Below, one piece after another: positions 569-62,670 of a stretch of DNA of 64,000 nt (position 1 is the first letter of the stretch; every line of letters starts with the position of its first letter). A program made the position numbers and the translations under genes. The stretch is from Phoronis australis (Eukaryota; Animalia; Phoronida), in NCBI GenBank assembly GCA_002633005.1, contig NMRA01000400.1:1-64000 (forward strand). Direction: 5' to 3'. The notes beneath the pieces were generated by a model. That model made no database searches and was not told the origin of the DNA. It saw only the letters and a list, made by a program, of their open reading frames with translations.

Positions 569-1891
569 TCAATTTTGCTGTTAATTAGCTGTCGTGACTG
601 GAAAACGGTTTTTTTGTTTTTCACAGTACAAAAAACGGATTTTTATGAATGAATTCTTGTACTTTGGATCGGAGTAAAACAGAAAACCTCTGTTGCATCA
701 AAAATGTGATCTTGAGAAACCTTAACGTGGAATACGTTATGAATGATACGTTTCCATTGAGAACCAACATATGCTCAAAGTCTCGGACCGAATAAAAGCA
801 GGGATGGAGAGCTTGAAATGGTATGCTCTTAAATGATCGACAGAGTTAGCAAGCCTGAACACAGAGGTGCGTTCCATAGACTCGAGAACCACGTGGAAAT
901 TCAAGATCACGCAACACTTCTCGAGATATTGTAATTTATGATTACAAGCAAAACACGTGATCTGTTTTTATTACTGCAAGAGGTTCTTGCGTGTGGGGAA
1001 CTATGCAGCTCAGAATCGATATTGTTTACGCTGCCAACCAGTTGTAAAATGCGTTAAGGTGCCATTATTAGCGAGAAATGTGGGTTTGTGAGATGAGTCG
1101 TGACGTGGGTCTGAACTCAAAACCTTAGCGGTTAAGTCCAAAGCTCTAATGGCGGATCTAAGCACCACGTGATGGCATAAAATCATCGGCCTTGATTTGA
1201 AATTATGGGATAGACAACGGTGAGAATTGGCGATTTGCAATAAAATCACATTATCTGCGGATTTTGTTGTTTCTCTTGTAGCTCTGACCAAAGTTGACAA
1301 CTTCAAGAAGTCTATATCACCAAATTATAATCCTAAACTCGCATTTTTCACCCGTAAAAGTTATTACTGTATTTTTAAGGTTATGTTGGACCCTCGAAAC
1401 CCCGTTGAACTTAGGCCAACTTCGGAAAACTCTGTGGCACGTAATTTAAGATAATATGTCTCATACATTGTTCTCCGAAAGTCTGGTTTTTAAAATGTTC
1501 CGCTTTTGCACGAGGGGCTATCAAAAACGAAGACTCGGAAGATGTTGATGAAAGCTGTTTTTAAACTTTGAAAAATTGATAAAGGCAAACGAAACGATAA
1601 TTTAGAAAATTGAAACAGCGGTTTTGAGATTCTATCTTGAACAATTATCTTACACCAAATTTTGTGGTGTTATTTATCCTGTTGTTTTGCTATGATTGTA
1701 CCTTTCATGTTGCTAAGTTTCTAAAAAAGCAATATCCCGTGACCTATTCACTGGCAGATTGGTACACTAAAGTCAAAAATCAAATTTTACGTACTTGACG
1801 ATAGGGTCCTGCATAACCACAAAAAAACTTTTATAAATCACCTGGATCAAAAAAATTCGTGAGAGACTTCATTAAAGTGGAACTTGCACGC

Positions 1892-2612
1892 TGTCAGAAT
1901 ATAGACAGTTATAGTTGTATTGTTTTGTTTTGTTGTTCTGTTTGATTGGCATGACCCCTGATTTAAGTACAGTGATGTTGAATTTGTTTACTACAATATA
2001 GTGTGGAACTTTCCAGAAGACTAAGGTCAGAACCATGATGAGGTCATTTGTTTACTACCAGAGTGTGGAACTTTCCAGAAGACTATAGCATGACAGTGAC
2101 TAATGCAGTCTGGAATATTTTAGAGACTAGTTCATGTTTGTAGAATTATTGGGTAGATTCCGGAAAGTTCTGGTATGTGCTTGAATTGAAGGAAAGTTCT
2201 AAAACAATGCATTAGGCTATAAATACACAGGCATGGGTTTGTGTTAGATCAGATCAAGTCAGTTCAAGAAAGTTTATCAGAAGAATTACGGTTGCGTTGC
2301 AGTGAAGAGACTCAGCAGTTACAGCGATAGTCAATAGAGAGCCAGCTATAGAGACAGCAGGTTATTGAATCAACGAGTGTAACAGTTGCTGAACTTGTCT
2401 CAGAAGTTCATCACAAGTCAAGGCTTCGCAGCAATGGCTGGAGCATAAACAGACATTGCGTCGGGCGTTTTGTTTGAGTAGGCTTGTGAACGTACGGTCG
2501 GGATTAATAAAGGATTAACTCGAACCAGTCTTCAGTCAATTGTTGCACTGAAAGCTATGAGCACTTGTCTGTAACAACCTGTGCCTACCCACACACGGGT
2601 AAAAACGTGACA
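1892..2612 (+). repeat. 5' LTR (721 bp)
   Basis: TGTCAGAATA...ACGTGACA; internal TATAAA (~2218) and AATAAA (~2506); colinear with the solo LTR at 49892-50645. Confidence 0.95.
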
Positions 2613-2614
2613 AT

Positions 2615-2632
2615 TGGAGAGCAAGCCAGGAG
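2615..2632 (+). promoter_or_regulatory. Primer-binding site, tRNA-Arg(ACG)-like
   Basis: TGGAGAGCAAGCCAGGAG lies 2 nt after the LTR and differs at 2 positions from TGGCGAGCCAGCCAGGAG, the complement of the tRNA-Arg(ACG) 3' end as recalled. Confidence 0.7.
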
Positions 2633-2687
2633 TTTACTGACGGTAACGAGGTGTGATAAAGTGGACTGTTGGAAGTAGCGACTCACT

Positions 2688-3780
2688 ATGGACACAAGAT
2701 CTCGGCTAAAGGAGTTGATGGCCCTCGGACAAGAAATGGGTCTGCAGGGAGACGACCTTAGACAGTTTGTGGAAAAACAGCAAGCTGAGGCGCGTGCTGA
2801 GGCTGAGGCTGAGGCTGAGGAGAGAAGGCAAGCTCGTGAAGCTGAAGAGAGAGTGCGAGAGGCAGAAGAGAGAAGGCAAGCGCGAGAGGCTGAGGCGGAA
2901 GAGAGACAACAAGCTCGTAAGGCTGAGGAGAAGAGGCAAGCCCGCGAAGCCGAACAACAGATGGAGGGAGAAAGAATAGAACACGTGAGGGCGCTAGCAA
3001 CGCTTAAAGCTGAACATGCTGCAGCGGAGGGTAACAATATTAGACTAACTGGTGGCGTAAAGCCAAAGCTACCAAAGTTTGATGAAAAGCTGGATGATAT
3101 GGACAACTTCCTGGAAAGGTTTGAAAGGTACGCAGAGAGCCAGGGCTGGACCCAGAGTAAATGGGCACATAGTCTCATTCCGCTGTTAACAGGTAAGGGC
3201 ATGTAGGTATACTGTAGCCTTCCTATGGATGATGCACTAGGTTATGTTACACTCAAAAGAGCCTTGCTGAAGCGGTACGAGCTGACAGAGGAGGGCTTTC
3301 GCTGACAGTTCCGGGAAGCGAGGGCTGAGAACGGTGAGACAGCTAACCAGTTTGCGGCCCGCATACAGCGTTACCAAGGCAGGTGGATAGACATGTCCGA
3401 CTGTGGCAAAGACTTTGCTGAGTTAAGAGATCTGATAGTGCGTGAGCAGTACGTGAACACCTGTACTAAGGACTTGGCTTTGTTCCTGCGAGAGCGGACA
3501 CCCAAGTCTGTTCCAGAGATGGTGGGTTTAGCAGAGAGATATACTGAAACCCATGGAGTGGATATAACGAGCACTCAGTCGAAAACGTCCCAAGAACGAC
3601 CAATCAAGACAGACAACCAGAGAGTCGACCAGAAGAAAACTGACCTCGCAGAGGAAAGATGTTTCTTCTGTCACAAAACTGGACACCTGGCTAGAGACTG
3701 TTGGAAACGGACACAAGGGATGCAACACCAAAAGTCAGCAGCGGTCAACCACCGACGTTCCCAGCATAAGGAGGATTCGG
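2688..3780 (+). pseudogene. gag: Gag (coiled-coil repeats, capsid/SCAN-like region, CCHC zinc knuckle), interrupted by stops
   Basis: EAEERRQAR repeats; PKLPKFDE..D.DNFLERFER; LRDLIVREQY; CFFCHKTGHLARDC. Confidence 0.85.
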
Positions 3781-3819
3781 GGAAGTGTGCTAACCCTGAA
3801 CGCGCCGTCAAAGGAAGGC

Positions 3820-4110
3820 TGCGTCTGAAGGAGGGTTATGTTGGCACGAAGAGAGTCTTAGTATTGAGAGACACAGGCTGAACGACCACTGTGGTTCGAT
3901 CCAGTCTAGTCAAACCAGGAGATATGACCTGCCGGAAGTGGTCATGCGAGTTGGCGGACTCTACCAAGAGGTGACTGTCTGTAGCCAAGATCAACATCAA
4001 GACACCGTACTACACGGGAGAAGTGTTTGCAATGTGTATGGAGCATCCAGTGGCCGATTTGATTATCGGGGACATACCTGGCGCCTTGGACCCAGGCGAT
4101 GTTGAGCGAC
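3820..4110 (+). pseudogene. Aspartic protease domain
   Basis: VLVLRDTG* catalytic motif with DLIIGD downstream. Confidence 0.8.
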
Positions 4111-5209
4111 AGCAGAGAGCAACAATTGCCAACGAGGACAATACAGGCAATAGTCTTGTGGAGGGTCCGAAAGATGACTCTCAGAAGGGTACTACTTCCC
4201 AAGAGGAAAACCCAGTGACCTCAGCTCCAGTTTAAGGAAGCCCAGCATGAAGATTCATCAATGAAAAAGCTGTGGGAGCAAGCTGAAGTCAAAGTTCAAC
4301 GACAGACCAAAAACAAGGGGTCATACGTGATGGAGGTTCAACGAGGAATACTCTATCGGATATTCAAGAAGAAAGACGGTGGCGAGGTGAAACAAGTTGT
4401 CGTGCCGAGCAGTTTACGGAAGTCCGTGATGAGTCTTGCTCATGAGTCTATACTCGGTGGATGCCTCGGTGTTAGGAAGACAACTGACCGTATCACCAGC
4501 AACTTCTATTGGCCAGGCGTGGCATCAGAAGTGACTCGATTCTGCAGATCATGCGACATCTGCCAGAAGACAATTCCAAAAGGTTGAGTGAACAAGGTAC
4601 CACTAGGAGAGATGCTTTGATGGAGGAACCTTTCAAGAGGATTGCGATCGATCTGATTGGCCCTACAGCTCCAGTTTCCGACAAGGGAAACATACATTCT
4701 CACGGTGGTAGATTTCGCTACCAGATACCCGGAAGCAGTGGCGTTACCGAAGATTGAGACAGAGCGTGTGGCTGAAGCATTATTAAAAGTCTTCAGTAGA
4801 GTAGGGATCACACGAGAGATCCTGAGTGATCGTGGAACGCAGTTCACAGCGGAACTGGTGAAGGAGGTCAGCAGGCCTGTGAGTGCACAGCAGCTATGCA
4901 CGACCCCTTACAATCTACGCTGTAACGGTCTCTGTTAAAGAATCAACGGAGTTCTAAAAGACATGATGAAGAACATGTGTCAAGAAAGACCAAAGGATTG
5001 GGACCGGTGTCTGCCAGCTGGCCTGTTTGCTTACCGGGAAGTCCGGCAATCAAGCACAGGATTTTCACCCATTGAGTTGTTATACGGCAGGACAGTAGAA
5101 GGTCCAATGCAAATACTGAGCGAACTCTGGACTGGGGAAGACAGCAACGAAGTTCGTAATACTCACCAGTATGTCTTCGAGCTCAGGAACCGCTTAGAGG
5201 AGACCTTAA

Positions 5210-6168
5210 ACAGAACACACCATGGATTTTTGCACATTTTGAATTACCGGTGGCCACAGACTAAATGTATGACGTAAAATTTAGCTAAACCCATGTTTAC
5301 TTTGTGTAATTAGCTCAAATTTTTTATTTTTCTTTCAATTTTGCCAATTTTCACATTTCCCGCCATGTGACGTCATGGGTTGAACACAAGAGATCAGTGA
5401 CTAGCGTTGAACAATGGCGGAGACCAGGGAATTTGAAAGTGACGACGATTATGAGCAAGAACTGAACGAATACTATGAAGAAACGTATGAGAATGGTGGC
5501 CAGGATGAGGAAATGGGGTTGCACGAAAGCGAGAACAAGTTTAATGTGCTTCCGGCTGCGTACTTTTCTACTTTGAGCCTTATGAACTGGATCCTCCCGC
5601 GAGAGAAGCGCCCTCGGGCTCGGCGAGTCAACCCAGTCATCCAACAGACAATCCTGAATTAAGAGCTGATGTTTCTGAATGATAAATATTGTCCTTTATT
5701 GAACCAGGCCTTCATCGTCTCCTGTGACTGGAGTCGAAACACGAGTCCTCAAAGTGGGCAGAACACAGAGTGGCCCCGGACCGAATCGCTTGGTCCACGA
5801 TGACGTCCCACACTCTCGTTCGGCGCACGAAGTCATGCCACTTCTGCGCAACTTTGGTGTCTTTCGGAACACCGAGACGTTTTCCGCCTGGCTGCTGTTG
5901 CTGCAGCCTCCGGAAACACATCTTTTGATCCCTCTACGAACCTTCTCGACGCTAAATGTACTTTGCATTCTCTTCACTCTATACACTTTGTCTCTGATCC
6001 GAACGGTATGGCGACTGACCTGGGTTCAACCCATGACGTTGTACATAATTATTATTTTTTTTCAATTTTTGCGTGTTACTTTATGAGCTGTGCACTAAAG
6101 GCACTGAAATCAAGTAAGATATAATAATAAAATTTATTTTGAGGTACTAGAGTCATGTTGTGTACACT
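5210..6168. mobile_element. Non-autonomous Kolobok-type DNA transposon (959 bp)
   Basis: TTAA at 5206-5209 and 6169-6172; imperfect ~15-bp TIRs (acagaacacaccatg / catgttgtgtacact); contains a THAP remnant and a convergent acidic ORF start. Confidence 0.85.
5712..5930 (-). pseudogene. THAP zinc-finger domain remnant
   Basis: RCVSGGCSN (frameshift) PKDTKVAQKWHDFVRR...LCSAHFEDSCFD gives the C2CH THAP signature with conserved P, W and F. Confidence 0.85.
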
Positions 6169-6549
6169 TTAAAGTTGGCTAGAAAAAGTCTGTGCAATGC
6201 ACAAGGTATTCACAAGCATTACTACGACAAGAAGGCCAGAGGTAGTCAGTTTCAAGTGGGACAAAGAGTGTTGGTATTACTTCCCACAGAACACAACAAG
6301 CTTACTCTGCAGTGGAAGGGGTCTTATTAGATTACAGAAAAAGTCAATTGTATGGACTTCAGAAACAATATGAACGGCAAGATTAAGATCTCCCATGCCA
6401 ATCTGTTGAAGGCGTATCACAAACGCGAAGCTAACAACATCACAGGTAAAGATGAAGCGATCGGTGCTGTGTTAATTGAGGAGTGTGTGACTGACGAAGC
6501 GACCCTTCTTGATGGAGGCAGTTTAGAGCTTCGACCGGAGGTTCACAGT

Positions 6550-7832
6550 GAAACATACAAGGACGTTAAGCTGTGCGATTCCTTGACGTCAGAGCAGCGT
6601 GAACAGGCACGACAGCTCCTACGTTACTACCGAGATATTTTCACCAATCAGCCTGGAGAGACCGATTTGGCCGGCCACGTCATCGACAGAACAACCAGTG
6701 AGAGTGCGGCCACGTCAGATGTCGTACACTACTCAGGACCTAGTGAAGAAGGAAGCACAGGAGAGTTTGAAAACGAGCCTATGGGTAACCCAGAAGCTAT
6801 TATGGCTACTCTGCATGGTCAGCGTTTCTTCTCGAAGTTCGACTTCACGAAGGGCTACTGGCAAATTCCCATGGATGAAGCTAATAGAGAGAAAACCGCA
6901 TTTGTGACTCTGCGAGGCTGTTACCAGTTCCGCAGAATGTCGTTTGGCTTGGTGAATTCAGCGGCCACGTTCAACAGGATGATCAGAAGAATGCTAGCTG
7001 ACTCAGATAATATCGAGCACTATGTCGACGATGTGCTACTCCACACCGTCACCTGGGAAGAACATCTCCGTACACTGAGAGACTTGTTTCAGAGAATAAA
7101 ACGAGCAGGCTTGACAGTAAGACCGTCAACGTGCAGCATTGGCTATCAGGAGGTGGAGTTCCTTGGACATCAGGTTGAAACATACAAGATAGCAATGGAC
7201 GAGCAAAAGCTATTGATCCAGGATGCACCAACACCATCTACTGAGACGGAAGTACGGTCATTCCTAGGACTTAGAGAGTACTACCGAAAGTTTGTGCCTA
7301 ACTATGCACAGATAGCCACACCGTTGACGGATTTGCTGAAGAAGGGCCAACCAAAGAAAGTCGTGTGGACCGATATTCATGAACAGGCATTCAAGAAGTT
7401 AAAGCAAGCACTTGGAAGCAGCCCGATCCTGCGAGTGCCTGACTTCACTCAGAGATTTATCGTCAGAACAGACGCATCTAACGATGGTTTATGGGCAGTT
7501 TTACTGCAGGAGATTGACGATGGGATATTTCCTATTGCGTATGCCAGCCGGAAGCTTAAAGAGAACGAGCGGCATTACTTTACAGAAGAGAAAGAGTGTT
7601 TGCTGTTAAACGTTTTCAGTTTTATCTCTATGGGACAGAATTCGTGGTGCAAACAGACCACAAACCACTGGTATATATTCAGCGTTGTAAGATTGAAAGT
7701 CCCAGAGTTATGCGATGGGCTATAGCGCTGCAAAATTATAAATTCCATGTGGCGGATATTCCAGGAAAATCTAATGTCGGCGCAGACTACTTAAGTCGAC
7801 TTGCAGAGCCTGCAAGTCAAGTAGCACCTTAG
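6550..7832 (+). pseudogene. pol: Reverse transcriptase and RNase H, with internal deletion and frameshifts
   Basis: FSKFDFTKGYWQIP, KTAF, FGLVNS, YVDD, FLGH, RSFLGL, TDAS, IAYASRKL, TDHKPL, ADYLSR. Confidence 0.93.
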
Positions 7833-12199: not shown

Positions 12200-13064
12200 G
12201 TAGAATAGCGTGTACAGCTGTATGCTTGTTTTTTCTATACCTCTTCAAAGGAGCAATTGGGGATTTTGTCGTTCAACCAATAAGTTGTAAAATGACCAGA
12301 GTCTAATAATTCACCGCGGTAGACAATCACTGCCACAAGGGAGTAGGACTCGGCAGAGCTTGTGCAGTTGAAAGTGCGGCTCTTTGGTCGAAGAATGATC
12401 TTCTTATAAAACATACAAGCAACTGTAACTTTTTCAGTGCGTTTCATAGTTTGGTAGATTCTCTGCACATGGAAGATGAAGACATGAGGTGACGATATCA
12501 TGGACCTGTGGTTGTTGAACTGCTTGACCGAACTTTCAGATGACATGTTTTAGAGGTTTTATCAGTCAATCGTTTAATTCTGGTGAAGTTGTCCATCGAT
12601 TCAGAGATGAAAGGTACTTGCCTAGGTCCATTATCATGATGTATAGCTGATCCGAAAATGGTAATGTGATGGTGAGCAAAGGATTTACAATGTACCGGGC
12701 GTTGCCACTCTGAAACACGATACCTGTACTGGCGACAATCCTTGAGATTGGTCAGTGATGGTAGAGTCTTTCTTTTCCATTTCCACACTGTTCAGTAGAT
12801 CACAATAGAATTTGTGGCAGTCCTCTTGCATTCCAATCGTTGGTAATGTTCTTGAATTGCACAAATCAGCTTTTGAGGGCTCTTTTTTGATTTAGAAGGT
12901 CTGTTTTTGTACTCGAAGAGTTCCGATATTTCTTTCAGTATTGGGATTGTCTTTGTTTCACGGACGTTGTTTTTGAAGCCTAGTACATTTCTAAGAGGCG
13001 GTAGCTCTGAGTTGGCAAAGCACAAGTTGTCAAGATTGTAGAGTATCAATATGAAAAAGTACAA
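12200..13064 (-). pseudogene. Intronless, frameshifted USP (peptidase C19)-like domain
   Basis: Cys-box-like YNLDNLCFANS and His-box-like YSLVAVIVYRGELLDSGHFTTY, in the correct order on the same strand. Confidence 0.7.
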
Positions 13065-33700: not shown

Positions 33701-34322
33701 GGAGTCATCGCTAATGCGGTAATTGCCCTGCTCCACACAAAATTTGCTGATGCCGACAGGTTCTGTCTACCATCTTAGTTACGAATGACAATTTCTTAAA
33801 CACATTGTGATGGAAGGAAATAAAAGCACGCATTTATTTGCCGGCAGGTTGAAAGACTTTGCCAAAGCAACAGTAAAATGCCGCCTTTGAGCACAGCGAG
33901 CCAATAGTGTAAAAAAGTGGCGGCATAATAACGTGTGTTATACAACTTTAACGCTGAAAGAAAGTTCCTATGATGTCTAACCTGGCTGAAATAGCGGTGG
34001 TAACAACAGATGAAACCGTGACGTGTATACGTAAAAATGGGATGCCTAGCTTGGGAAATAAAAAATGTTTTGCAGTCTGAAAGGACATAATCATTTTGCT
34101 CAAACCTGGTCAAGGTCGATAATGTAAAGGATCAATAGTCCAAAGAAGCTGATTGGACGTGAAGTCACGTGTCTCATGAGGAGCCACTTTTTGTGTTGCA
34201 GCTCGCAGATAAGGGAATTTGGCACATTACTCCTTTTGATGCATTGCATTAAGGTTATCTCCAACCTTATTTAGTGGCCTCCATTCTAACTCGTATATCA
34301 AAAAACTAGGCTAGGGTACAAA

Positions 34323-34940
34323 AATTGAGCTACATCAATCCAAGAGGTAACCGCTTGAATCCAGTCGCAAAATATTCACCGTAAGCCCAGGTATCACGAA
34401 TGAACACTGCCAGACAAATCTAGTGGTGGGTTACCCCCGCCAGACACGCCCAAATACCAGAATTGAGCTAGATCAACCCATCAGGTAACCGTTTGAAACC
34501 AATTGCACGATGTTCAGCATCACTGAACATGGAACAACAGTTAGATGCCAGACAATTTCAGTGGTGGGGTGGCCCTGCCAGACGATTATCAAAAAGGGTT
34601 AAAAATTGAGCTAGATCAATCCAAGAGGTAACCGCCTAAAACTAGTTCCAAAATATTCACCGTAAGCCCAGGTATCACGAATAAACACTGCCAGACAAAT
34701 CTAGTGGTGGGTTAGCCCCGCCAGACACGCCCAAATACATGAATTGAGGTAGATCAACCCTGAGGTAACCACATAAAACCAGTTGCAAAATATTCGCCGT
34801 AAGCCCAGGTTTGAAGAATAGATACTACCAGACAAATATAGTGGTGGGTTATCCTCGCCAGACACGCCCAAGTACCTGAGTTGAGCTAGATCAACCCGGC
34901 AGGTAACAGCTTGAAACCATTTGCATAATGTCGAGCAACA
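34323..34940 (+). repeat. ~138-bp tandem repeat (~4.5 units) with an inverted partial copy at 38817-38960
   Basis: Units start at aattgagctagatcaa near 34323, 34461, 34604, 34742 and 34880; share gccagacaaatctagtggtggg. Confidence 0.85.
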
Positions 34941-37178
34941 TTCTGCATGCAAAAAAAGATACTTTACAGACATTTTTAGCGGTGGGGCAGGAGAGTGCAG
35001 AGGTTTGGTCGNTGTTAGGAATTTTCGATTAGTCTGTTCGTTTGGTTTCTATGACAAGGTATCTTTGTAAAAAAATTGAAGTTTTATTCGTCTTCGTCAC
35101 ATTAAGCAAAAACTAGGCTTTTATATCAAAAATCCTAAAACTATTTTTGAGATTGATGACTAAATATTAAGTTTGGAAAGTTTCAGCGAAATCCATCCAG
35201 CCGTTTTTCAGAACTAAAGTTGCTAAGTTCAAATAAAGTCGATTTGCCGAAGCCGAGAAAAAGCCGATTAAACTGGGACAAGTGAAAATCTCAAAGTCTT
35301 CGGTTAATTATTCGGTAAAAACTTGTTTTCGGTTCACATAACCTATACAATCCTTAACTATGTTAGCTATTTCAACGTTCACTCGCAATGTCAACTGATT
35401 TTGCAGTGCGTAACTAACTTAATTATCATTAAAACCTCAAATAGACTTTTAGTTCCCAGCCAACTTTTACTGTTGTTTACCCCCTACTTTCTACATGTAA
35501 GTAGGTCACAGTTCATAGCCTGTACACGTCACGGGATGGGAGACTGGTACGAAACCAAGTAAGAAATGGAATACAAAAATCGAATCAGTGGCTAAAGTAT
35601 GTCGTTAGCATGAGGTCGAAACATCGAAATGTCAACTTATTATTTGAATTAAGGAATTAGGGTAAGGATTTATCTCTTTTCACAACTTTCTGTGTTCATG
35701 ACCAGAAAGGCCTGAGGCGACTCGTAGCATTCATTTTCAACGCCAACGGTCGCATACATGTAGACGCACAACTCCCTTTGGATCAAAATTACGTTTTGTC
35801 TTTGTTTTCCCCGGCACCATTATATCGTAAGTACACCTCGTTGGCTCAATGTTATGGCGACTTTGTGAATGAAAGGACTGAGGGTATACGAAGCTGTTCT
35901 GTACCTGGCGGGAGATTCGCTTTAATTGACAGCCCTTTAACCTTTGACCTTGGTTAAGTAGTAATCAAATATCCACGCTGTTGTGCGGTTCCAAAGTGGT
36001 TCTGCAAAATCTTTTATTTCTCGCTACGCGTTAGGTATTTTGTATTTGAAGTTCCCCGAGAAAGAAGATAAGGTATTTTGCTAGACACAAATGAAATATT
36101 GTAAAAATGGCCAGCTTTTGTGAATAACGTTGGAGATAACCTTAAATGCTCGTATTAAACATCACTGCTTCAGGCGGTTTTTGTTCCATGCAATCCACTT
36201 TCAATGAAACCTAGTTCAAGTCATTTTGTTAAACTTTTTGCGCTTTTCTAAGAATATTGGGGGTCCATTCCACGTAAAATCGTTGCGTGTTTTGTATGTC
36301 CGTTACCAACTATTCTAATGACCCGGTGACCGCAGGCGACTAGTCGTTAGTTGTCGAAAAATGTCTGCCTCCAGAGTTCAACTTAACGCAATTTTTGAAC
36401 TTGCACATCATCGTGGAACGATCCCCAGTTCTTTGAAAAGGAATGTTTTCAACAAGTCAGAGACAATATTGCGGTCTGAATTCAGTTGTTTGTGGCAAAC
36501 TACAGATGAATGTAGTTATATTTACAAACAATACAGTACTTGCCAATAGTTCAGAAATATTCAATGTTTGAAGTTGGTGCACGCCTAAACAAGATTTTAA
36601 ATCTCAACCTCCTCGTTTCCAAAAAGTAGGCCTACTCTGCATCCACAGCTCCCAAGACGTTCCTCGCAATATCGTTAAAGCTGAACATAGGAGCCCCTTT
36701 AAAATCCTTCTGGAACAGCACTGGCCGTCCACTATGGAAAGCCCGATGACAACACTGAACCATAAATGAGATGATTTTAAAATCTTTGAGGACCATGATG
36801 TATCGGGAAATTGCTAAACATGTATTGTGTCCTCAATAAATAAATTTAAAAATATTATTATTAATAATAATAATAATAACGATAACTAAAACGAAGCGAT
36901 AACGAGTAATGCTAGTGATAGCAGTAACATTAATAGCAGTGACAGTAGTGATAGTAATGTAATACTAATAAAAATGATAATAGGTAGCCAAATTCATGTC
37001 GTGTCAGCCCGTCTCATTCCTATAGAAGATGTATACGAAAAGCGCAGCCCAAAAGGGTGTTTTTTCACAGAAAAAAATAACAAAATGGTGCCATTTCCGA
37101 AAAAATATATCTAAAAGGTGGCTTTCAGTTGCAACAGTTGTTACATTTTACGAAATTATTACATTTTACGGCGTATCA

Positions 37179-37394
37179 GGGCGCACACGGCTGAGCCAAG
37201 AGTTGCGACAATTCGGCTATCTCCCTGAGTTACCTAACGATCCCGTATAAGGTCTTCAGCTTAGTTCGTGTCTAATGGAGCTTAGGGGCTAGAAACCCGA
37301 CTCAAGGGTCCAACGGTGTGCCTCAGTGGGACTCGAACCAACGACTTTGAATAGAGGAAGCAGACACTTATCCCATCAGGCCATACTGCATCCG
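37179..37394 (-). mobile_element. tRNA-derived SINE
   Basis: Minus strand has A box TGGCCTGATGG and B box GGTTCGAGTCCC, then cccttgagtcgggtttctagcccct, which is shared with other copies. Confidence 0.75.
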
Positions 37395-38186
37395 GTAAAC
37401 AGCCTAAATCAAGTTTGTCTTTGTGAAGATAGACATGCAGCAGCTTTAAAAATAGACCGGGGATTTCCCTTGCTTTACAAACGTGCAAATTAATAAATTT
37501 GTAATGTGATTAAAAATCATCCCACCAACTATCCGTTTACGTCACCAGAGCACATTAACACCGGTAAAGCTTATTGTGAGATCAAAAGTAGATTAAGTCC
37601 TTTGAAGAATGTCCTTAAGAACGCTGCCACAGACACACATCACCTATCAATTTGTTGTCCGTCCATGACGTCATGAAGTGACAATCTCCGAGGTAACTAC
37701 CTGCAGGTTGTGTTGTTGCAGAGTTGTCACGTTGGTTTGACGTGGTTTTTCTATCAATTATGCGCCTCTTCAAATATTAATCTGAGGCTGTTTAACATGT
37801 AGTCTCAATTCTCCTTGGACAGACAAAGTCTGATGGTTTCGATCAAGTTTTGGAGATATACGATGCATTCCGTCAGTGACCCTCCAACCAAAAGTTTTTT
37901 TGGTCTCTTTCAAATCTTCGAGCTTGTATACGGTGTTTATATATAATTCGTTAGTGACTGGTCGAATAAGCTGAAACAATAGACTTTCACGTTCGGTGAC
38001 GTGTGTATGCTCATAAATTATTCTATGCTTGATTTGTTCTGATGTTTTTTCTTCGTAAGTCAACAGGATCGTTTAAATGCTGAGGATATAGCTTTGTTCT
38101 GATGTTTTCTCTTCGTAGGTCAACAGGACCCGTTTAAATGCTGAGAATATAGCTAGCTGCATGCTAAAGTTTGGTCACTCGCCGTC

Positions 38187-38815
38187 ATGGGAGTACCCAT
38201 TAGCATGCTTAGATGTGGCTGGTTCACGGAGGACGACATAGAAACATGGCTGAAAAGCGACTCCAAGCCCAAGATATTTGGGGAAAAGGGCAATATGTCG
38301 TACACAGAATACGCCAGAAAGGTAACGGTGCACTTGTCTTCGATGAAGTTAGACGAAAAACACAAGGGAAAAATAATCTGCTACGAGAAAGTTAAAGGGG
38401 ACCGTATATCGCGGACGAATTACGTCGATAGAGTCGACGAAGGAGTACTTGTCACCAATACGTCCAAGAACCTATTCGGTCGTGCATTCTTGCGAATGAG
38501 TCCAAAGCTCTATCCATTAGGTGTTCAGAAGCATAGTGAATACGGCAAATGCTTGGTTTCAGCGCCAGCAAAAATCATAACAATTTCTGTAAGATTAGAC
38601 GGCATTCCACAGCGTTTGTGTCGGCAGCATGGTCACACTCAGCACGTGCCCGATTCTTTCTTCTCGTGGTTAGTCTCCAACGAAAACGAGACCGTAACGA
38701 TAGACATTCCGATATGGAATCCAGGTGAACCCACGTCAAGTATAACACCAGATATTCATAGTGTAGGTGATAATAAGTCAATTGACGGCACGCCTCGTGG
38801 AACACCAACTGGACG
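38187..38815 (+). CDS. Gap-truncated duplicate of the 316-aa orphan ORF
   Basis: Protein identical to 42569-43519 for ~209 aa, then ends at the N at 38816. Confidence 0.7.
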
Positions 38816-41561
38816 NGCGGGTACTCCCCACCACTGAAATTGTCTGGCAGTGACCAATTTTGATACAATGGATGACGTAGCAGGTATTGAAGGCAGTTTT
38901 AAGTGGTTACCAGAAAAGTTGATCTAGCTCAATTTTTTAGTGCAATTCTCTTGGCTCCCCTGACCACACCCACCAGAGCGAACCTGCCAGACGGCCATTT
39001 CCAAGCATCAGGATACGCATAGAGCACTGTGGCACCAAAGAAAATTGGTTACCTTTTCATGCCCAAAAAAGCTCTGGGATCCCGGTCTATAACCCCTCCG
39101 TCGATTTTAATGAAACCCTTTTAAACGAAAACTTCACCAGTTACCTCAAAAATGGTGTTAGGAATTTTCGATTAGTCTGTACGTTTGGTTTCTATGACAA
39201 GGTATCTTTGTAAAAAAATTGAAGTTTTATTCGTCTTTGTCACATTAAGTAAAAACTAGGCTTTTATATCAAAAATCCTAACAGCACTTTTGAGATCGAT
39301 GACTAAATATTTAGTTTGGAAAGTATCAGCGAAATCCATCCAGTCGTTTTTGAGAACTAATGTTCCTAAGTTCAAATAAAGTCGATTTGCCGAAGCCGAG
39401 AAAAAGCCGATTAAACTGGGACAAGTGAAAATCTCAAAGTCTTCGGTTAATTATTCGGTAAAAAATGTTTTCGGTACACATAACCAATACAATCCTTAAC
39501 TATGTTAGTTATTTCAACGTTCACTCACAATGTCAACTGATTTGGCAGTGTGTAACTAACTTAATTATCATTAAAACCTCAATAGACTTTTTTCCCAGCC
39601 AACTTTTACTGTTGTTTACCCACTACTTTCTACGTAAGTCACAGTTCATAGCCTGTACACGTCACGTGATGGGAGAGTGTTACGAAACCAAGTATGAAAT
39701 GGATTACAAAAATCGAATCAGTGGCTAAAGTATGTCGTTAGCATGAGGTCGAAAAATCGAAATGTCAACTTATTATTTGAATTAAGGAATTAGGGTAAGG
39801 ATTTATCTCTTTTCACAACTTTCTGCGTTCATGACCACAGAGGCCTGAGGCGACTCGTAGCATTTCGTTTTCAACGCCAACGGTCGCATGCATGTAGACG
39901 CACAACTCCCTTTGGATCAAAACTACGTTTTGTCTTTGTTTTCCCCGGCACCATTATATCGTAAGTACACCTCGTTGGCTCAATGTTATGGCGACTTTGT
40001 GAATGAAAGGACTGAGGGTATACGAAGCTGTTCTGTACCTGGCGGGAGATTCGATTTAATTGACAGCCCTTTAACCTTTGACCTTGGTTAAGTAGTAAAC
40101 AAATATCCATGCGGTTGTGCGGTTCCAAGGTGGTTCTTCTAAATCTTTTTTTCTCGCTACGCGTTAGGTATTTTGTATTTGAAATTCCCCGAGAATGAAG
40201 ATAAGGTATTTTGCTAGACACAAATGAAATATTATAAAAATGGCCAGCTTTTGTGAATAAAGTTGGAGATAACCTTAAATGGTCGTATTAAACATCACTG
40301 TCTTCAGGCGGTTTTTGTTCCATGCAATCCACTTTCAATGAAACCTAGTTCAACAACTTTTTGCGCTTTTCTAAGAATATTGGGGGTCCATTCCACGCAA
40401 AATCGTTGCGTGTTTTGTATGTCCGTTACCAACTATTCTAATGACCCGGTGACCGCAGCCCACTAGTCGTTAGTTGTCGAAAAATGTCTGCCTCCAGAGT
40501 TCAACTTTACGCAATTTTTGAACTTGCACATCATCGTGGAACGATCCCCAGTTCTTTGACAAGGAATGTTTTCAACAAATCAGAGACAATATTGCGGTCT
40601 GAATTCAGTTCTTTGTGGCAAACTACAGATGAATACAGTTATATTTACAAACAATACAGTGTTTGCCAATAGTTCAGAAATATTCAATTTTTGAAGTTGG
40701 TGCACGCCTAAACAAGATTTTAAGGCTCAGTGTCCTCGTTTCCAAAAAGTAGGCCGACTCTGCATCCACAGCTGTCAAGAAATTCCTCGCAATAGTGTTA
40801 AAGCTGAACATAGGAGCCCCTTAAAATCCTTGTGGAACAGCACTGGCCGTCCACTTTGGAAAGTCCGATGATAACACTGAACCATAAATGAGATGATTTT
40901 AAAATCTTTGAGGACTATAATGTATCGGGACTTTGCTAAACATGTATTGTGTCCTCAATAAATAAATTTAAAAATATTAATAATGATTTTAATAATAATA
41001 ACGATAACGAAAACGAAGCGATAACGAGTAATGCTAGTGATAGCAGTAACATTAATAGCAGTGACAGTAGTGATGGTAATGTAATACTAATAAAAATGAT
41101 AATAGGTAGCAAATTCATGTCGTGTCAGCCCGTCTCATTCCTATAGAAGATGTATACGAAAAGCGCAGCCCAAAAGGGTGTTTTTTCACAGAAAAAAAAT
41201 CTCCAAAATGGCGCCATTTCCGAAAAAAATATATCTAAAAGGTGGCTTTCCTGAATTTCCGAAACAAAAGTGAGAGAATTTTTACACAAATTAGTCTCTA
41301 AATGGGTCACTTTTTTGTTCGAGCCCACTCTCTAAACGGGTCGGTATTCAAATTTATTTGGGCGGCACTCCTCATCTAAAAATATTCCAGTACCCCTCGG
41401 CCGTGTCAGACACCACTTGTTCGTGATTTTGGTAATTTTCTTTGCAATATGACGTGGGTTTCGTAAAATGTAACAATGGCACATTTCTCGCATGTGCGTC
41501 ATTGACGTAAAATGCAACAGTTGTTACATTTTACGAAATTGTTACATTTTACGGCGTATGA

Positions 41562-41774
41562 GGGCGCACACGGCTGTGCCAAGAGTCCCCACAAGTCGGC
41601 TATCTCCCTGAGTTACCTAACGATCCCGTATAAGGTCTTCAGCTTAGTTCGTGTCTGATGGAGCTTAGGGGCTAGAAACCCGACTCAAGGGTCCACAGTG
41701 TGCCTCAGTTGGACTCAAACCAACGACTTTGAATAGAGGAAGAGACACTTATCCCATCAGGCCATACTGCTTCC
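41562..41774 (-). mobile_element. tRNA-derived SINE (counterpart of 37179-37394)
   Basis: Same A/B boxes and body. Confidence 0.75.
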
Positions 41775-42568
41775 GGTAAATAGCTTAAATCAAGTTTGTC
41801 TTTGTGAAGTTAGACATGTAGCAGCTTTAAAAATAGACCCGGGATTTCCCTTGCTTTACAAACGTGCAAGTTAATAAAGTTGTAATGTGATTAAAAATCA
41901 TCCCACCAACTATCCGTTTACGTCACCAGAGCACATTAACACCGGTCAAGCTTATTGTGAGATTAAAAGTAGATTAAGCAAGTCCTTTGAAGAATGTCCT
42001 TAAGAATGCTGCCACAGACACATCACCTATCAATTTGTTGTCCGTTCATGACGTCATGAAGTGACAATCTCCGAGATAGCTACCTGCAGGTTGTGTTGTT
42101 GCAGAGTTGTCACGTTGGTTTGACGTGGTTTTTCTATCAATTATGCGCCTCTTCAAATATTAATCTGAGGCTGTTTAACATGTAGTCTCAATTCTCCTTG
42201 GACAGACAAAGTCTGATGGTTTCGATCAAGTTTTGGAGATATACGGTGCATTCCGTCAGTGACTCTCCAACCAAAAGGTTTTTTAGTCTCTTTCAAATCT
42301 TCGAGCTTGTATACGGTGTTTATATACAATTCGTTAGTGACTGGTTGAATAAGCTGAAACAATAGACTTTCACGTTCGGTGACGTGTGTATTCTCATAAA
42401 TTATTCTAAGCTTGATTTGTTCTGATGTTTTCTCTTCGTAAGTCAACAGGATCGTTTAAATGCTGAGGATATAGCTTTTTTCTGATGTTTTCTCTTCGTA
42501 GGTCAACAGGACCGTTTAAATGCTGAGAATATAGCTAGCTGCATGCTAAAGTTTGGTCACTCGCCGTC

Positions 42569-43519
42569 ATGGGAGTACCCATAAGCATGCTTAGATGTGG
42601 CTGGTTCACGGAGGACGACATAGAAACATGGCTGAAAAGCGACTCCAAGCCCAAGATATTTGGGGAAAAGGGCAATATGTCGTACACAGAATACGCCAGA
42701 AAGGTAACGGTGCACTTGTCGTCGATGAAGTTAGACGAAAAACACAAGGGAAAAATAATCTGCTACGAGAAAGTTAAAGGGGACCGTATATCGCGGACGA
42801 ATTACGTCGATAGAGTCGACGAAGGAGTACTTGTCACCAATACGTCCAAGAACCTATTCGGTCGTGCATTCTTGCGAATGAGTCCAAAGCTCTATCCATT
42901 AGGTGTTCAGAAGCATAGTGAATACGGCAAATGCTTGGTTTCAGCGCCAGCAAAAATCATAACAATTTCTGTAAGATTAGACGGCATTCCACAGCGTTTG
43001 TGTCGGCAGCATGGTCACACTCAGCACGTGCCCGATTCTTTCTTCTCGTGGTTAGTCTCCAACGAAAACGAGACCGTAACGATAGACATTCCGATATGGA
43101 ATCCAGGTGAACCCACGTCAAGTATAACACCAGATATTCATAGTGTAGGTGATAATAAGTCAATTGACGGCACGCCTCGTGGAACACCAACTGGACGATT
43201 GTCACGTAAAGGGCGCTGGGTCTCCACTTTGTCGCACGGTAGCGCATGTGCTAAAGCGTTCCATGACTTCATCAACTCGATTCCGAACGGATACCACGAA
43301 ATAGTCATAGAAGTCGGTTTCATGTATAATTGCGACGAGCTGCTGTTGTTACCGCTCGAGAAATATAACTCCTCGGTGGGTCAAAGCGGACATGTTTGGA
43401 TGAAGGAATACTTCAGCGGGACAGAGTTCGTAACAGCAGGTGCTTCAAAGGAAAGGGGGTTGAAAGCGTATCCTATTGTTCTTGCGAGTGGCACACTTAA
43501 ATTGCACAAGTCTGAATAG
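42569..43519 (+). CDS. Intronless 316-aa protein of unknown function, possibly bacterial-like
   Basis: Long clean ORF in repeat-rich DNA; strong Kozak context GCCGTCATGG; in-frame upstream stop; acceptor-like ttttctcttcgtag upstream; AATAAA near 44103 and 44191; the two differences seen versus the duplicate are synonymous. Confidence 0.85.
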   Translation: MGVPISMLRCGWFTEDDIETWLKSDSKPKIFGEKGNMSYTEYARKVTVHLSSMKLDEKHKGKIICYEKVKGDRISRTNYVDRVDEGVLVTNTSKNLFGRAFLRMSPKLYPLGVQKHSEYGKCLVSAPAKIITISVRLDGIPQRLCRQHGHTQHVPDSFFSWLVSNENETVTIDIPIWNPGEPTSSITPDIHSVGDNKSIDGTPRGTPTGRLSRKGRWVSTLSHGSACAKAFHDFINSIPNGYHEIVIEVGFMYNCDELLLLPLEKYNSSVGQSGHVWMKEYFSGTEFVTAGASKERGLKAYPIVLASGTLKLHKSE

Positions 43520-45193
43520 AGTTTTCAAGATTTCATTAATTTCCTTAACCATGCATATTTTGTAAAGTGCTTTGGGTGAAATGAGGGGTGCTTTTTCAGG
43601 AATGGTCTTGATAAAAGGGTACCAGACCCGGTTTTGGATTATTAACAAATATTCAAAACGTCTTTCCTGTCTATTTTTGTGAAATAATATAATACTATGT
43701 AACCATCGACAACCTATATGTGACACAGAGAGTGTGGGCTTTCAGTTGAATCCTGCTTATATCACTCAAGTGGTTGGCAGGTGACACAACGATGATTGTT
43801 TGAAATCACTAAAACTAGGTTTAGTATCCTTTCAAGGCAGGTGAGGTGTTTGAAGGAATGTTCCTTTGCTCTGCCAAGTCTGAAAAGAATTTCTCCTCCT
43901 GAGCTCTACGTACAGGACATGTATGTCCCGTGAATGTCCTAAATTAGTACATGGTCAGCTCGTGGTCACTCACTAGGACATTAGTTTCCTTCTGGTGGTA
44001 TCTTGTCGTACACTAATACAAACAGCTTGACAAAGAACATACAGAGTGACATGGTCAACCTAATGTGTAGATCTAGGTCCAAACTATATGTGAAATCAAG
44101 CTAATAAATGGATCCTCAAAGGCCTTTATTTTCATAGCGAACTTTATTCCATCCAACCAAATCATACTGTCCAAAGCAACTCAGTGTACAAATAAAGAAT
44201 TGTTTCCACGTCACGTGACACCCTGCACTGAGCAAACAAAGCAGCTTATTTTACATATAACTATCTTTGAACAAGTCTCATGTAGTAATCAATTGAATTT
44301 ATATGTCTCCGTGGAGAATCTACTTTCATCCGTGTTCTCACAGACAAATGTGTGACTTCATTCCACCAGGTGGTGCGTCAGTTAACATAAGCCTTCCATG
44401 ACTAAATACATCAAATTTAAACTTAATTTTGACTATTTTTGCAATTTTGTACAATGCCATTATGACGGTCTAACTCATCCCAGGTTTAGCGGTACGTATG
44501 GTTAGTGGTAATACTGAGGGACTGCCCACCTTCAGTTATTGATCCAAACTTATGTAGACAGACAACCTAATTTCACTAAAATTCTACGTTTTCTAAAATT
44601 GTGTTATGAGCAACAATAAACAGTGTTAAATTGGGGCTAACATCGGAAGGTTATTTCTCAGAAATGGGTAGCGTGATTTAAATTTAAGATAGTTTGATAT
44701 ATGCAATCTACCCCAAAATTCCTTTATAGAATTGCATTTTAGATGTTTCAATTTTACATTAGGTGTTTTCAGTCGAAAATTTTGATTCTTACACAAAAAT
44801 CAAAACGTTGCGCGAGGCAAAGACCAATCAATCACTAAAGAAGAAATATTTAATCAAAAGATTTTTGACTCTTTTGTTTTGCTATGAATATAATTTTCAC
44901 TTTTTTGCCAACTATAACTAAAATGCATGACCACTAACAGGTTGTTCTAATATTTTAAAATTAAATTATATACATTTTTAACTCCAGAACGTACTTGCTT
45001 CAATTCAGTTTTGTACCTTAATACACAAACAGGCCGATACACGTATTCCTAATCCTAACGAAAATTCAAACATATGACCTTAAACATATACGGTATTTTA
45101 TTTGGTCAATAAACTCATAAAAGTAACCAATAAATTTCACGCTGACAATAAAATTTTCATCAACTGGTACATGAATTTTGATTCATGCCCCGG

Positions 45194-45392
45194 TTATCCC
45201 TTTCTGCTACAAACTTCCAGGACTTTATACGCGGCAAGAAAATTCATTGGGTAACAGGCGCAATAGTTGCGATAGGCATAGACAAAACGAGGCCTCATCT
45301 CTCCACGGCATCTGGCCCAACGCTTCTGTCGCCACCGATACTGGCGGCACTGTCCCCACAAACACCGGCAGCGACACCAACGGCAGCTTTGT
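45194..45392 (-). CDS. Terminal exon of a secreted Cys/Arg-rich peptide precursor
   Basis: Acceptor ttattcttcag; phase-2 reading QSCRWCRCRCLWGQCRQYRWRQKRWARCRGEMRPRFVYAYRNYCACYPMNFLAAYKVLEVCSRKG*; minus-strand AATAAA at 45097-45102. Confidence 0.8.
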
Positions 45393-45897: not shown

Positions 45898-45972
45898 CTT
45901 CGACGAGTCACTTCGTCGGCTATACGTGTAGGTATAGACAGAAACAAACCACTGCAAGTATGTCCAAAATTT
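45898..45972 (-). CDS. Internal exon (75 nt) of the Cys/Arg-rich precursor
   Basis: Acceptor attatcag, donor AAG|gtaagc; phase 2-2; encodes NFGHTCSGLFLSIPTRIADEVTRR. Confidence 0.75.
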
Positions 45973-46097: not shown

Positions 46098-46312
46098 TTC
46101 CATTACGTTGAGACATTCCTTTGTAAGAAAAGAGTGGAATTCCATTACGTTGAGACATTCTTTTGTAAGAAAAGAGTGGAATTCCATTACGTTGAGACAT
46201 TCCTTTGTAAGAAAAGAGTGGAATTCCATTACGTTGAGACATTCCTTTGTAAGAAAAGAGTGGAATTCCATTACGTTGAGACATTCCTTTGTAAGAAAAG
46301 AGTGGAATTCCA
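46098..46312. repeat. 42-bp minisatellite, 5 nearly identical copies (intronic)
   Basis: ttccattacgttgagacattcctttgtaagaaaagagtggaa x5, with no spacers. Confidence 0.97.
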
Positions 46313-47111: not shown

Positions 47112-47452
47112 CCAGGGTGGTTGCAGTGGGTGTTCGTGAATGGGTACAAGAAACGGCACAGCCTGTTACCGATAAACTGTTGAGAAATTCTGATAGCGGT
47201 GGCACAGCAATGTCCGTATATACACCTTCCAATTTGTGCCAAATCCCTGCCGCTAGGTGTCCACCTTAGTTTCCTTGTTGCAACATCGGAATCTTTCGAG
47301 TCGTCCCCGATCTCGTCGTTTAAGGAGTCACCAACGCCTTCGCCACTCAGCGCGTTGGGTTGAGCACGTGCATTAACGAGTAAGGCGTCATTTTCTAAGT
47401 TCGACTCCAGCTGACTCACAGCAGAAGCCAAGATGGCGACGGAACTGATAAC
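47112..47452 (-). CDS. Exon encoding signal-peptide end, acidic propeptide, furin site and mature N-terminus of the Cys/Arg-rich precursor
   Basis: Acceptor atttgtag, donor GG|gtaggt; VISSVAILASAVS-QLESNLEND...DDSKDSDVAT-RKLR-WTPSGRDLAQIGRCIYGHCC...THCNHPG. The initiating exon was not located. Confidence 0.8.
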
Positions 47453-49891: not shown

Positions 49892-50645
49892 TGTCAGAAT
49901 ATGGTCTGACACTATTTTTAGTTGTATTGTTTTGTTATTCTGCTTGACTGGCATGACTCCTGAGTTAAGTACAGTGATGATGTAATTTGTTTACTACAAA
50001 ATAGTGTGGAACTTTCTAGAAGACTGAGGTCAGAACAGTGATGATGTAATTTGTTTACTGCAGTATAGTGTGGAACTTTCTAGAAGACTCTAGCATGACA
50101 GTGATTAGTGCAGTCTGGAATATTCTAGAGACTAGTATATGTTTGTAAAATGGTTGGGTAGATTCAGGAAAGTTCTAGAATGTGCTTGTCGTAAAGTTCC
50201 AGAACAATGCATTAGGCTATAAATACACAAGCACGGGTTTGTGTTAGTGAGATCAAGTCGGGAGATCAAGTCAGTTCAAGAGAAGACCAAGTAAGTTCAA
50301 GAAAGTTAATCAGGAGAACTACAGTTGAGTTTCAGTGAAGAGAATCAGCAGTTACAGCGATAGTCAATAGAGAGCCAGCTATAGAGACAGCAGGTCATTG
50401 AATCGACGAGTGTAACAGTTACTGAACGTGTCTCAGAAGTTCATCACAAGTCAAGGCTTCGCAGCACTGGCTGGAGCATAAACAGACATTACGTCGGGCG
50501 TTTTGTTTGAGTAGGCTTGCGAACGCACGGTCGGGATTAATAAAGGATTAACTCGAACCAGTCTTCAGTCAATCGTCGCACCGAAAGCTATTAGCACCGG
50601 TCTGTAACAACCTGCGCACACCCACACATGGGGAAAAACGTGACA
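49892..50645 (+). mobile_element. Solo LTR of the Gmr1-like family
   Basis: Colinear with 1892-2612; TGTCA...TGACA ends; perfect 5-bp TSD GACAT. Confidence 0.96.
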
Positions 50646-61964: not shown

Positions 61965-62146
61965 TCAGCAGCGAACTGTGGCGCAGATTTTGAATGGATC
62001 AGGCACGAATGTTATAGATGTGGCCCCTTCTTCTGACAGCTTTTCTACGCCAGGAGGTGGCGTTATACGGAAGCGATGGATGATACTTGTGAAAAAGAGA
62101 AACAGCTCCTGTTTTGCCAACTGTTGGCCGAGACAAACCCGAGGCC
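61965..62146 (-). CDS. Cytochrome P450 (clan 2-like), last exon
   Basis: Acceptor ttccctttcag; G-PRVCLGQQLAKQELFLFFTSIIHRF...PFKICATVRC*; completes the heme motif FGLGPRVCLG. Confidence 0.95.
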
Positions 62147-62582
62147 CTGAAAGGGAAGAAAGATGCCACCTTAAACAGGCTACTTTGTTTGATCATTTTT
62201 ATCACGATAAAAGATTAGTTAATATATGAACATGTCAACAATTTTTATCATCAGTATGACAGTTTTACACCATATTGAAAACAAATGCACCAACAACGAC
62301 ATTTCAATATTAGGCAAAATATCATCTTCAGACACAATAATCACACAGAATGGAGCACAATATGGTGCTCATTCCATCAACACTGGCAACACAGCATGGT
62401 TTACTGAGGTCAAACTTCTTGATTGTGGCAATTACGATGTCCAACAACTGGTGACGCAGCTAACATATACGCACTCCCTGCTGAGCATACAGGCTGGAGT
62501 TGTGATAGACAGTTGTTACTTGACAGATACTAGGTGCACCATGTTGTAAAGTGAGCAATCTGTTTATGGTATTCTGTGAAGT

Positions 62583-62670
62583 GGCAGTGTTGCCTGGTGT
62601 GAGGCCATGAGTTCGAGTCCTACTGGGTCACACTGCTAAACCCTTGAGTCAGGTTTCTAGCTCCTCAGCT
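62583..62670 (+). mobile_element. Truncated tRNA-SINE copy in a CYP intron
   Basis: B box GTTCGAGTCC, then cccttgagtcaggtttctagctcct as in the SINE at 37179-37394. Confidence 0.65.

Follow-up and report, generated by a model that had tools for sequence, protein, structure and literature searches.

A weakly transcribed gene of Phoronis australis as a probable remote relative of an unnamed bacterial domain

Positions 1-64,000 of the forward strand of Phoronis australis contig NMRA01000400.1 (GCA_002633005.1), a stretch of 64,000 nucleotides that is referred to here as the window, harbor a single-exon coding sequence for 316 amino acids (aa). We give a probability of roughly 55% to the reading as a whole, namely that this is an integrated, weakly transcribed and constrained gene, that its product is a remote homologue of a bacterial domain, and that the domain was likely transferred and now acts as a cytosolic binding module. 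The original prediction had described the gene as an intronless orphan with a bacterial-looking domain and as a candidate for horizontal transfer.

The gene, its transcript and its upstream copy

The coding sequence lies on the forward strand, and the features that surround it are as follows.

42569..43519, + strand: uninterrupted coding sequence, 316 aa, without an internal stop; sense-only RNA reads in runs X6, X7 and X8
42563..42572, + strand: Kozak-like start context GCCGTCATGG, from the sequence
42416..42536, + strand: 60-bp tandem duplication, in whose second unit the AG at 42500-42501 resembles a splice acceptor, from the sequence; splicing not observed
43520..44108, + strand: likely 3' untranslated region, with a high-copy repeat stretch at ~43670-43855 and AATAAA at 44103, from sequence and depth
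44151..47452, - strand: convergent spliced host gene with a Cys-rich product; exons 47112-47452, 45898-45972 and a last one starting at 45392, coding part 45194-45392
35013..38815, + strand: duplicate of the upstream region together with the first 629 coding bases, with single-N gaps at 35012 and 38816

Open frames of this kind are expected by chance around 1.4e-4 times per 64 kb, against the one seen at 42569-43519. The sequence features on which the original prediction had drawn are all present: the frame has zero internal stops, the start lies in a good, Kozak-like context, the acceptor-like AG is found upstream, and AATAAA follows as the first after the stop, 584 nt downstream. All six of the motifs that it had quoted are contained in the protein, and its remark that no signal peptide is apparent agrees with an N-terminus that is devoid of a hydrophobic stretch (maximum 11-residue Kyte-Doolittle mean 1.05). 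The composition of the ORF (GC 0.46, GC3 0.51) matches that of host exons. An Rfam search gave no match.

Transcription was assessed in X6, X7 and X8, which are raw RNA runs from another study and of which around 18-19% each was read. Approximately 7, 8 and 10 reads, respectively, fall on the ORF; the first mate is always on the minus strand, with none in the opposite orientation, and the minus-strand neighbor shows the reverse arrangement. This amounts to low-level transcription of the sense strand only in three of three raw RNA runs. X5, a contig-only run, gave nothing over the ORF, and no RNA reads fall on 41846-42311 in X6, X7 or X8. Coverage starts in the bin 42446-42539 and, for the sense RNA of X8, stops near ~44050. 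Within the 60-bp duplication the first unit bears a donor-like GTAAGT and the second an acceptor-like TAG/GT, an arrangement that could yield a 64-nt candidate intron. The 5' UTR intron suggested in the original prediction was not observed: among the RNA joints listed none lies on the 5' side of the ORF, where depth is mostly below the 3-read limit. Since an in-frame stop lies 10 codons 5' of the start, splicing of an exon onto position 42501 would leave the protein no longer than it is.

The claim that the gene is integrated into the host genome is upheld, and expression has been added to it. A single X3 contig of 4,050 bases covers 42080-44400, spanning the ORF and entering the 3' end of the convergent spliced gene; it is unbranched and has a depth of 44.2, as compared with 800-3,300 in repeat bins. 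Continuous contigs of both X1 and X3, runs that may derive from the assembly's own sample, connect the ORF with host repeats and with the spliced gene. Read depth across the ORF is even and stays low beside that of nearby repeats, so the gene is not a multi-copy element. The convergent gene has three exons with AG/GT borders and a frame that stays open over 204 codons, with 15 cysteines, and its linkage to the ORF through the X3 contig shows that the latter is host-integrated. The first exon of this neighbor was not found, and two of its exons, searched singly, gave no useful Pfam match; its Cys pattern may reflect a secreted, cystine-knot-like protein. Its depth is 300-650 in X5 and ~1 in X6-X8.

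The wider setting includes broken Gypsy-like ORFs at 2688-7725 on the + strand, which we take to be those of a retrotransposon, as well as the following.

12235-12549, - strand: fragment matching the UCH ubiquitin hydrolase model PF00443 (E 3.4e-9), possibly transposon-borne
34317-34929: tandem array, 137 bp x 4.4
41600-41780, also 37279-37338 and 62611-62670: high-copy element, compatible with a tRNA-derived SINE in minus-strand orientation
46098-46312: tandem array, 42 bp x 5.1, 98% alike, in an intron of the convergent gene
61965-62192, - strand: final exon of a gene for a cytochrome P450, PF00067 (E 4.8e-12)

The Gypsy-like ORFs, the high-copy repeats and the cytochrome P450 exon bear out the original description of an animal transposon setting; its SINE is a candidate, known only by the B-box-like motif at 41711 and by high depth. 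The high-copy element carries this B-box-like motif at 37329 as well as at 41711. At 49892-50645 there is an 85% copy of an LTR-like stretch that lies at 1892-2612.

The region 35013-38815, which had gone unmentioned in the original prediction, duplicates 39156-43197 at 94-97% identity. It includes a partial coding copy, 38187-38815, that lies 4.4 kb upstream of the ORF and ends at a single-N gap. In X3 the upstream region is represented by contig pairs, with depths of 28.9 + 16.7 and 15.9 + 23.4, and one contig of each pair bears the letters of the upstream copy. These pairs, taken with the one contig of depth 44.2 over the ORF, fit two alleles of one locus, and the two copies are most probably such alleles, assembled separately; a larger tandem duplication is a possible alternative. 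The allelic reading implies a non-coding heterozygosity of ~3-4%.

The two copies differ at 35/1056 non-coding sites beside the gene and at 88/2,090 further out, against only 2/629 coding sites, both of them synonymous (non-coding versus coding, Fisher p 8.6e-6). At the flank rate around 16 replacement changes are expected and 0 are seen; reads may have collapsed near the gap, and if only the first 51 codons are trusted then 4 replacements are expected (P 0.017). The coding sequence is under constraint between the two copies, and the 316-aa ORF is a real, constrained and weakly expressed gene. That the ORF could be bacterial contamination mis-assembled into the scaffold, or else a dead relic, is brought to mind by the single-N gaps, the duplicated segment and the low expression. 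Such an origin is very improbable, given that X1 and X3 contigs run without a break from the ORF into host repeats and into a spliced gene, that sense reads occur in three runs of another study, and that the copies differ only silently.

Resemblance to an unnamed bacterial domain

Direct searches with the protein returned no relative. A word-index search gave 0/1,041 candidates, phmmer found 0 homologues among 1.84 billion representatives, and Pfam, NCBIfam and PHROGs held nothing at a meaningful E; in PDB sequences there was one row only, at E 0.22. No match to the protein or to the bacterial family described below was obtained by tblastn in phages and plasmids, and no confirmed relative of either by the patterns used in IMG/VR. 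When 301 Flavobacteriales-order genomes were searched with the single protein, 7 weak rows appeared, of which the 6 inspected were unrelated. The exact protein is absent from a collection of 15 billion sequences, which suggests that the lineage of this animal may be poorly sampled; the collections searched are mostly prokaryotic by design. The Atlas offered two clusters from Bacteroidota (184 and 166 aa) that are leads only, with scores of 0.89 and 0.87 (below 0.9) and a recognition value of 1678, under the mark of 2300. An Atlas cluster carries a 13% label for DUF6267 (PF19782), a candidate that was rejected: there is no Pfam match to it for the animal protein or in the hits listed for 68 alignment rows, and a search for PF19782 was uninformative, the model being absent from 201 genomes and also from 14 controls. 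A literature search that covered few subscription papers turned up no account of either the gene or the domain.

The resemblance emerged instead from a bacterial domain that the original prediction had named. A first short motif of it retrieves 120 loci, almost all of which code for proteins of ~550 aa that have the domain at their N-terminus; both of the full-length ones that were scanned carry the serine hydrolase domain PF00144. A second motif retrieves a more diverse group that is homologous to the serine-hydrolase group (hhalign 99.6%). With an alignment from which the animal protein was left out, members were found in 4/12, 17/351 and 27/301 genomes. The members fetched are mostly from Bacteroidota, and most start with what looks, by eye, like a signal peptide. 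The domain occurs once or twice, followed by a serine hydrolase in some proteins and by a conserved ~110-aa domain in others, and in one locus (L188) it stands nearly alone, in a 221-aa frame. Most of the non-hydrolase proteins (L147, L149, L191, L205, L284, P0053, P0055) have this ~110-aa domain C-terminal to the shared one, and it has no Pfam match at E 1e-4. Neither Pfam nor NCBIfam, in the versions searched, has a model for the family delimited here: proteins of 35 loci gave no Pfam match at E 1e-4, and NCBIfam gave 0/3 tested. Weak Pfam rows for its members involve carbohydrate-binding or Ig-like models, with AMPK1_CBM in 7/68 (best E 0.0037, below a useful threshold). The simplest reading, weakly suggested, is that the bacterial domain may be an accessory binding domain. 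A LytTR regulator lies within ~1.5 kb in 7/35 loci scanned, a count without a background control. Other neighbors, likewise counted without such a control, include TPR proteins (4/35 loci) and LuxR regulators (2/35); L255, L280, L288, L305, L307, L308 and L159 are among the loci in this regulator and TPR set.

Profile C, built from 56 bacterial domains at <60% identity with the animal protein left out, matches residues 91-264 of that protein with 15.6 bits and a pairwise E of 7.3e-7, the best shuffle reaching 5.9. The animal protein ranks first of 2,002 (2,000 shuffles, the reversal and the protein itself; hhalign 80.5%), and also first against 778 real ORFs, the next best having 7.9 bits. As the bacterial-only profile is broadened the pairwise E drops from 0.03 to 0.005, 6.6e-4 and then 7.3e-7. 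Removal of the N-terminal motif by which members had been fished leaves an E of 4.2e-7, and half-samples give 2.8e-4 or better in 20/20. The signal lies with the 40 non-hydrolase members, which alone give E 9.9e-7, whereas the 16 hydrolase members alone give E 0.034; profiles of the serine-hydrolase subgroup did not match the protein (E 0.03, 0.028 and 0.034, with 66th place of 2,002 in one test). The bacterial domain named in the original prediction exists, and the six motifs lie in order on its conserved blocks; what matches the protein, though, is the family at large and not the serine-hydrolase subgroup mentioned there. Taken one at a time, none of the 56 bacterial proteins gives a significant match, the best E being 0.011.

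The scale of this match calls for care. The best chance match of a related profile among 177,635 PDB sequences has 15 bits (E 0.19), so the 15.6-bit score is no better than that benchmark; scaled to ~25,000 families, the HMM E would be roughly 0.02, and the family was picked by its motifs after the animal protein had been seen. An ordered-block test of our own construction, with blocks taken from the bacterial alignment and gaps left free, gives the protein a score of 68.3, against 18.5 +/- 5.6 (maximum 49.0) for 100,000 shuffles. This score was reached by 0/20,000 block permutations and by 0/50,000 controls with both fished blocks removed. It was also reached by 0/2,057 windows of real protein from 778 Bacteroidota ORFs (best 44.4), decoys that had not been selected as beta-sandwiches and from which none was dropped; in a smaller decoy set, 291/757 windows were excluded as family members before counting. 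Six of the eight blocks fall in order on the six named motifs, with the first block and the helix block poorly placed. Identity to the members is 10-21%. The conserved residues G61, G241-x-H243 and G308 are kept, and around the GKI motif the near-invariant Phe of the family is replaced by C65 and the upstream His by D56.

On these comparisons the protein is likely a remote homologue of the unnamed bacterial domain. The opposing view, in which it is a lineage-specific orphan beta-sandwich and the motif match combines convergence with a post hoc choice of family, draws on the borderline HMM score at database scale, the want of a pairwise match and the Atlas values below their marks. We consider it unlikely, since six blocks lie in order, far beyond all controls even when the fished motifs are left out, and since the signal strengthens as independent members join the profile.

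A structural model divides the protein into two parts.

42569..42733, + strand: N-terminal extension, residues 1-55, with two predicted helices and without a signal-peptide-like stretch, from the model and hydropathy
42734..43510, + strand: predicted Ig-like beta-sandwich core, residues 56-314, with the bacterial-domain blocks and insertions at ~145-165, 182-225 and 255-300

The mean AlphaFold pLDDT rises from 33 for the single sequence to 62.5 with 67 bacterial rows (pTM 0.61); being built with the bacterial alignment and confident only in the aligned strands, the model is not independent of the homology claim. Confident strands occupy residues 62-67, 96-101, 130-137, 171-177, 241-252 and 303-314, and the core strand blocks have a pLDDT of 76-94. 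In total 110/316 residues are below pLDDT 50, and the insertions are of low confidence. A cluster of C145, H148, H150 and H153 (43001-43027) in the first insertion, a region of low model confidence, could be a candidate metal site. The fold is predicted to be an Ig-like beta-sandwich, the best matches being the Ig-like sandwiches 6oe6, 2lfe, 8iu8, 3n6y and 7bcj (Z 6.7, 6.5, 6.1, 5.6 and 5.3), over 86-126 residues at an rmsd of 2.8-3.8. The best Z, 6.7, is in a range common without kinship, and among 48,161 chains no match reached Z of at least 8. Foldseek, which the original prediction had named as a check on an AlphaFold model, returned nothing at E 0.001 from the PDB.

Origin of the gene

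All of the relatives found are prokaryotic, or are metagenome contigs with bacterial architectures. A mixed profile gave 4 matches among 3,113 candidates, each with a bacterial architecture, and no animal homologue was seen in the direct searches or among these mixed-profile matches. The finding of only prokaryotic-type relatives, with no animal relative and an intronless coding sequence, favors transfer. Phylogeny, which the original prediction had proposed as a check, gives no supported nesting: a quick IQ-TREE run on 68 rows leaves the animal protein unplaced, on the longest branch (2.96). For the alien index, the other check proposed with it, neither the bacterial nor the animal side offers a match at BLAST level. 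With the protein unplaced and its GC and GC3 host-like, a transfer would be either old or one that passed through an unsampled carrier. Horizontal acquisition from bacteria, either directly or through such a carrier, is accordingly a plausible origin, and on the distribution of relatives somewhat better than an even prospect; the original candidacy for transfer is thus favored by distribution, and left without the backing of tree or composition.

A gene that is homologous to the bacterial domain could also have descended vertically, from an old eukaryotic family that divergence or poor annotation keeps from being recognized. The very low identity, the long branch and the host-like composition are compatible with such descent, and the libraries, which lack the protein itself, give no statement of how far they cover eukaryotes. 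Against this, an old gene under constraint should leave orthologues, of which none was seen in 1.84 billion representatives; the mixed-profile matches are all of bacterial architecture, and the coding sequence is intronless. We hold vertical descent to be decidedly unlikely.

Delivery by a mobile carrier such as a large DNA virus, with the gene then retained as one host gene, would make the bacterial likeness indirect and is similarly improbable. The intronless coding sequence would suit it, as would the structural comparison, in which ranavirus ICP-18 leads the viral rows (E 7.8e-3, prob 0.75) ahead of weak ones from nudiviruses and baculoviruses. However, 0/415 BFVD matches reach E 0.001, the ICP-18 superposition has TM-scores of 0.26/0.36 and an rmsd of 18.7, and the viral, phage and plasmid searches described above were without a relative. 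The depth is moreover that of a single copy, and no other long virus-like ORF was seen nearby. A gene borne at present by a transposon or a virus was rejected on the flat single-locus depth, the lack of a confirmed relative in the IMG/VR, phage and plasmid sets and a single weak structural row.

Proposed role and comparison with known systems

In the favored reading, a bacterial domain that forms part of mostly signal-peptide-bearing proteins would have been transferred into the animal lineage. The animal protein would have kept only the shared domain, with a helical N-terminal extension in place of the signal peptide, and would have acquired three insertions relative to the bacterial domain. 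The animal and bacterial members share glycines and positions of the hydrophobic core, and no set of catalytic residues. A lone domain with neither a hydrophobic N-terminus nor a catalytic set points to a cytosolic binding or adaptor protein rather than an enzyme, and such a protein would bind a ligand, either protein or glycan, inside the cell and without catalysis. A cytosolic, non-catalytic binding module is our guess, and a tentative one. Equally speculative is the fuller account, in which a Bacteroidota envelope domain, often found beside LytTR genes, may have been transferred, stripped of its partners and domesticated as an intracellular sensor or binding protein.

The transfer of genes from bacteria to animals is already well known. 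If the present reading is true, a gene that routine searches call an orphan is a domesticated bacterial domain, and transfer screens based on BLAST can miss such cases. The domain would be invisible to standard homology searches, and would stand for an unrecognized group among animal orphans, made up of old bacterial acquisitions. Without a function on either side, the finding answers no biological question yet.

The closest comparison is with the bacterial proteins themselves. The Bacteroidota serine hydrolases (~550 aa, with a C-terminal PF00144 domain) belong to the wider family whose profile matches the animal protein and have the same block order. They differ in that their subgroup profile fails to match it, and in that the animal protein has neither a PF00144 match nor a signal-peptide-like stretch. 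The non-hydrolase proteins (for example L147, L191, L262, L188, P0053 and P0055) have a 40-member profile that does match, and they too have insertions before the last strand. They are, however, mostly multi-domain proteins with signal-peptide-like N-termini, and their domain encompasses 145-200 aa as against ~260 aa in the animal. The Ig-like domains recovered by structure (6oe6, the HECW2 N-terminal domain 2lfe, the GH66 N-terminal domain 8iu8, PA1606 3n6y and RoxP 7bcj) are alike in predicted overall fold; the resemblance is one of fold only, and function is not transferable.

Finally, Drosophila is described as harboring prokaryote-derived genes that include hemolysin E-like, cdtB and aip56 genes (PMC11731912). 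As is proposed for Phoronis, a prokaryotic domain has been retained there and is expressed by the animal (PMC11731912). The donors of the Drosophila genes have named families whose activities are known, and secretion is reported for the hemolysin E-like products (PMC11731912). In contrast, the proposed donor family of the Phoronis gene is unnamed, its product is predicted to be cytosolic, and its origin is without phylogenetic support.
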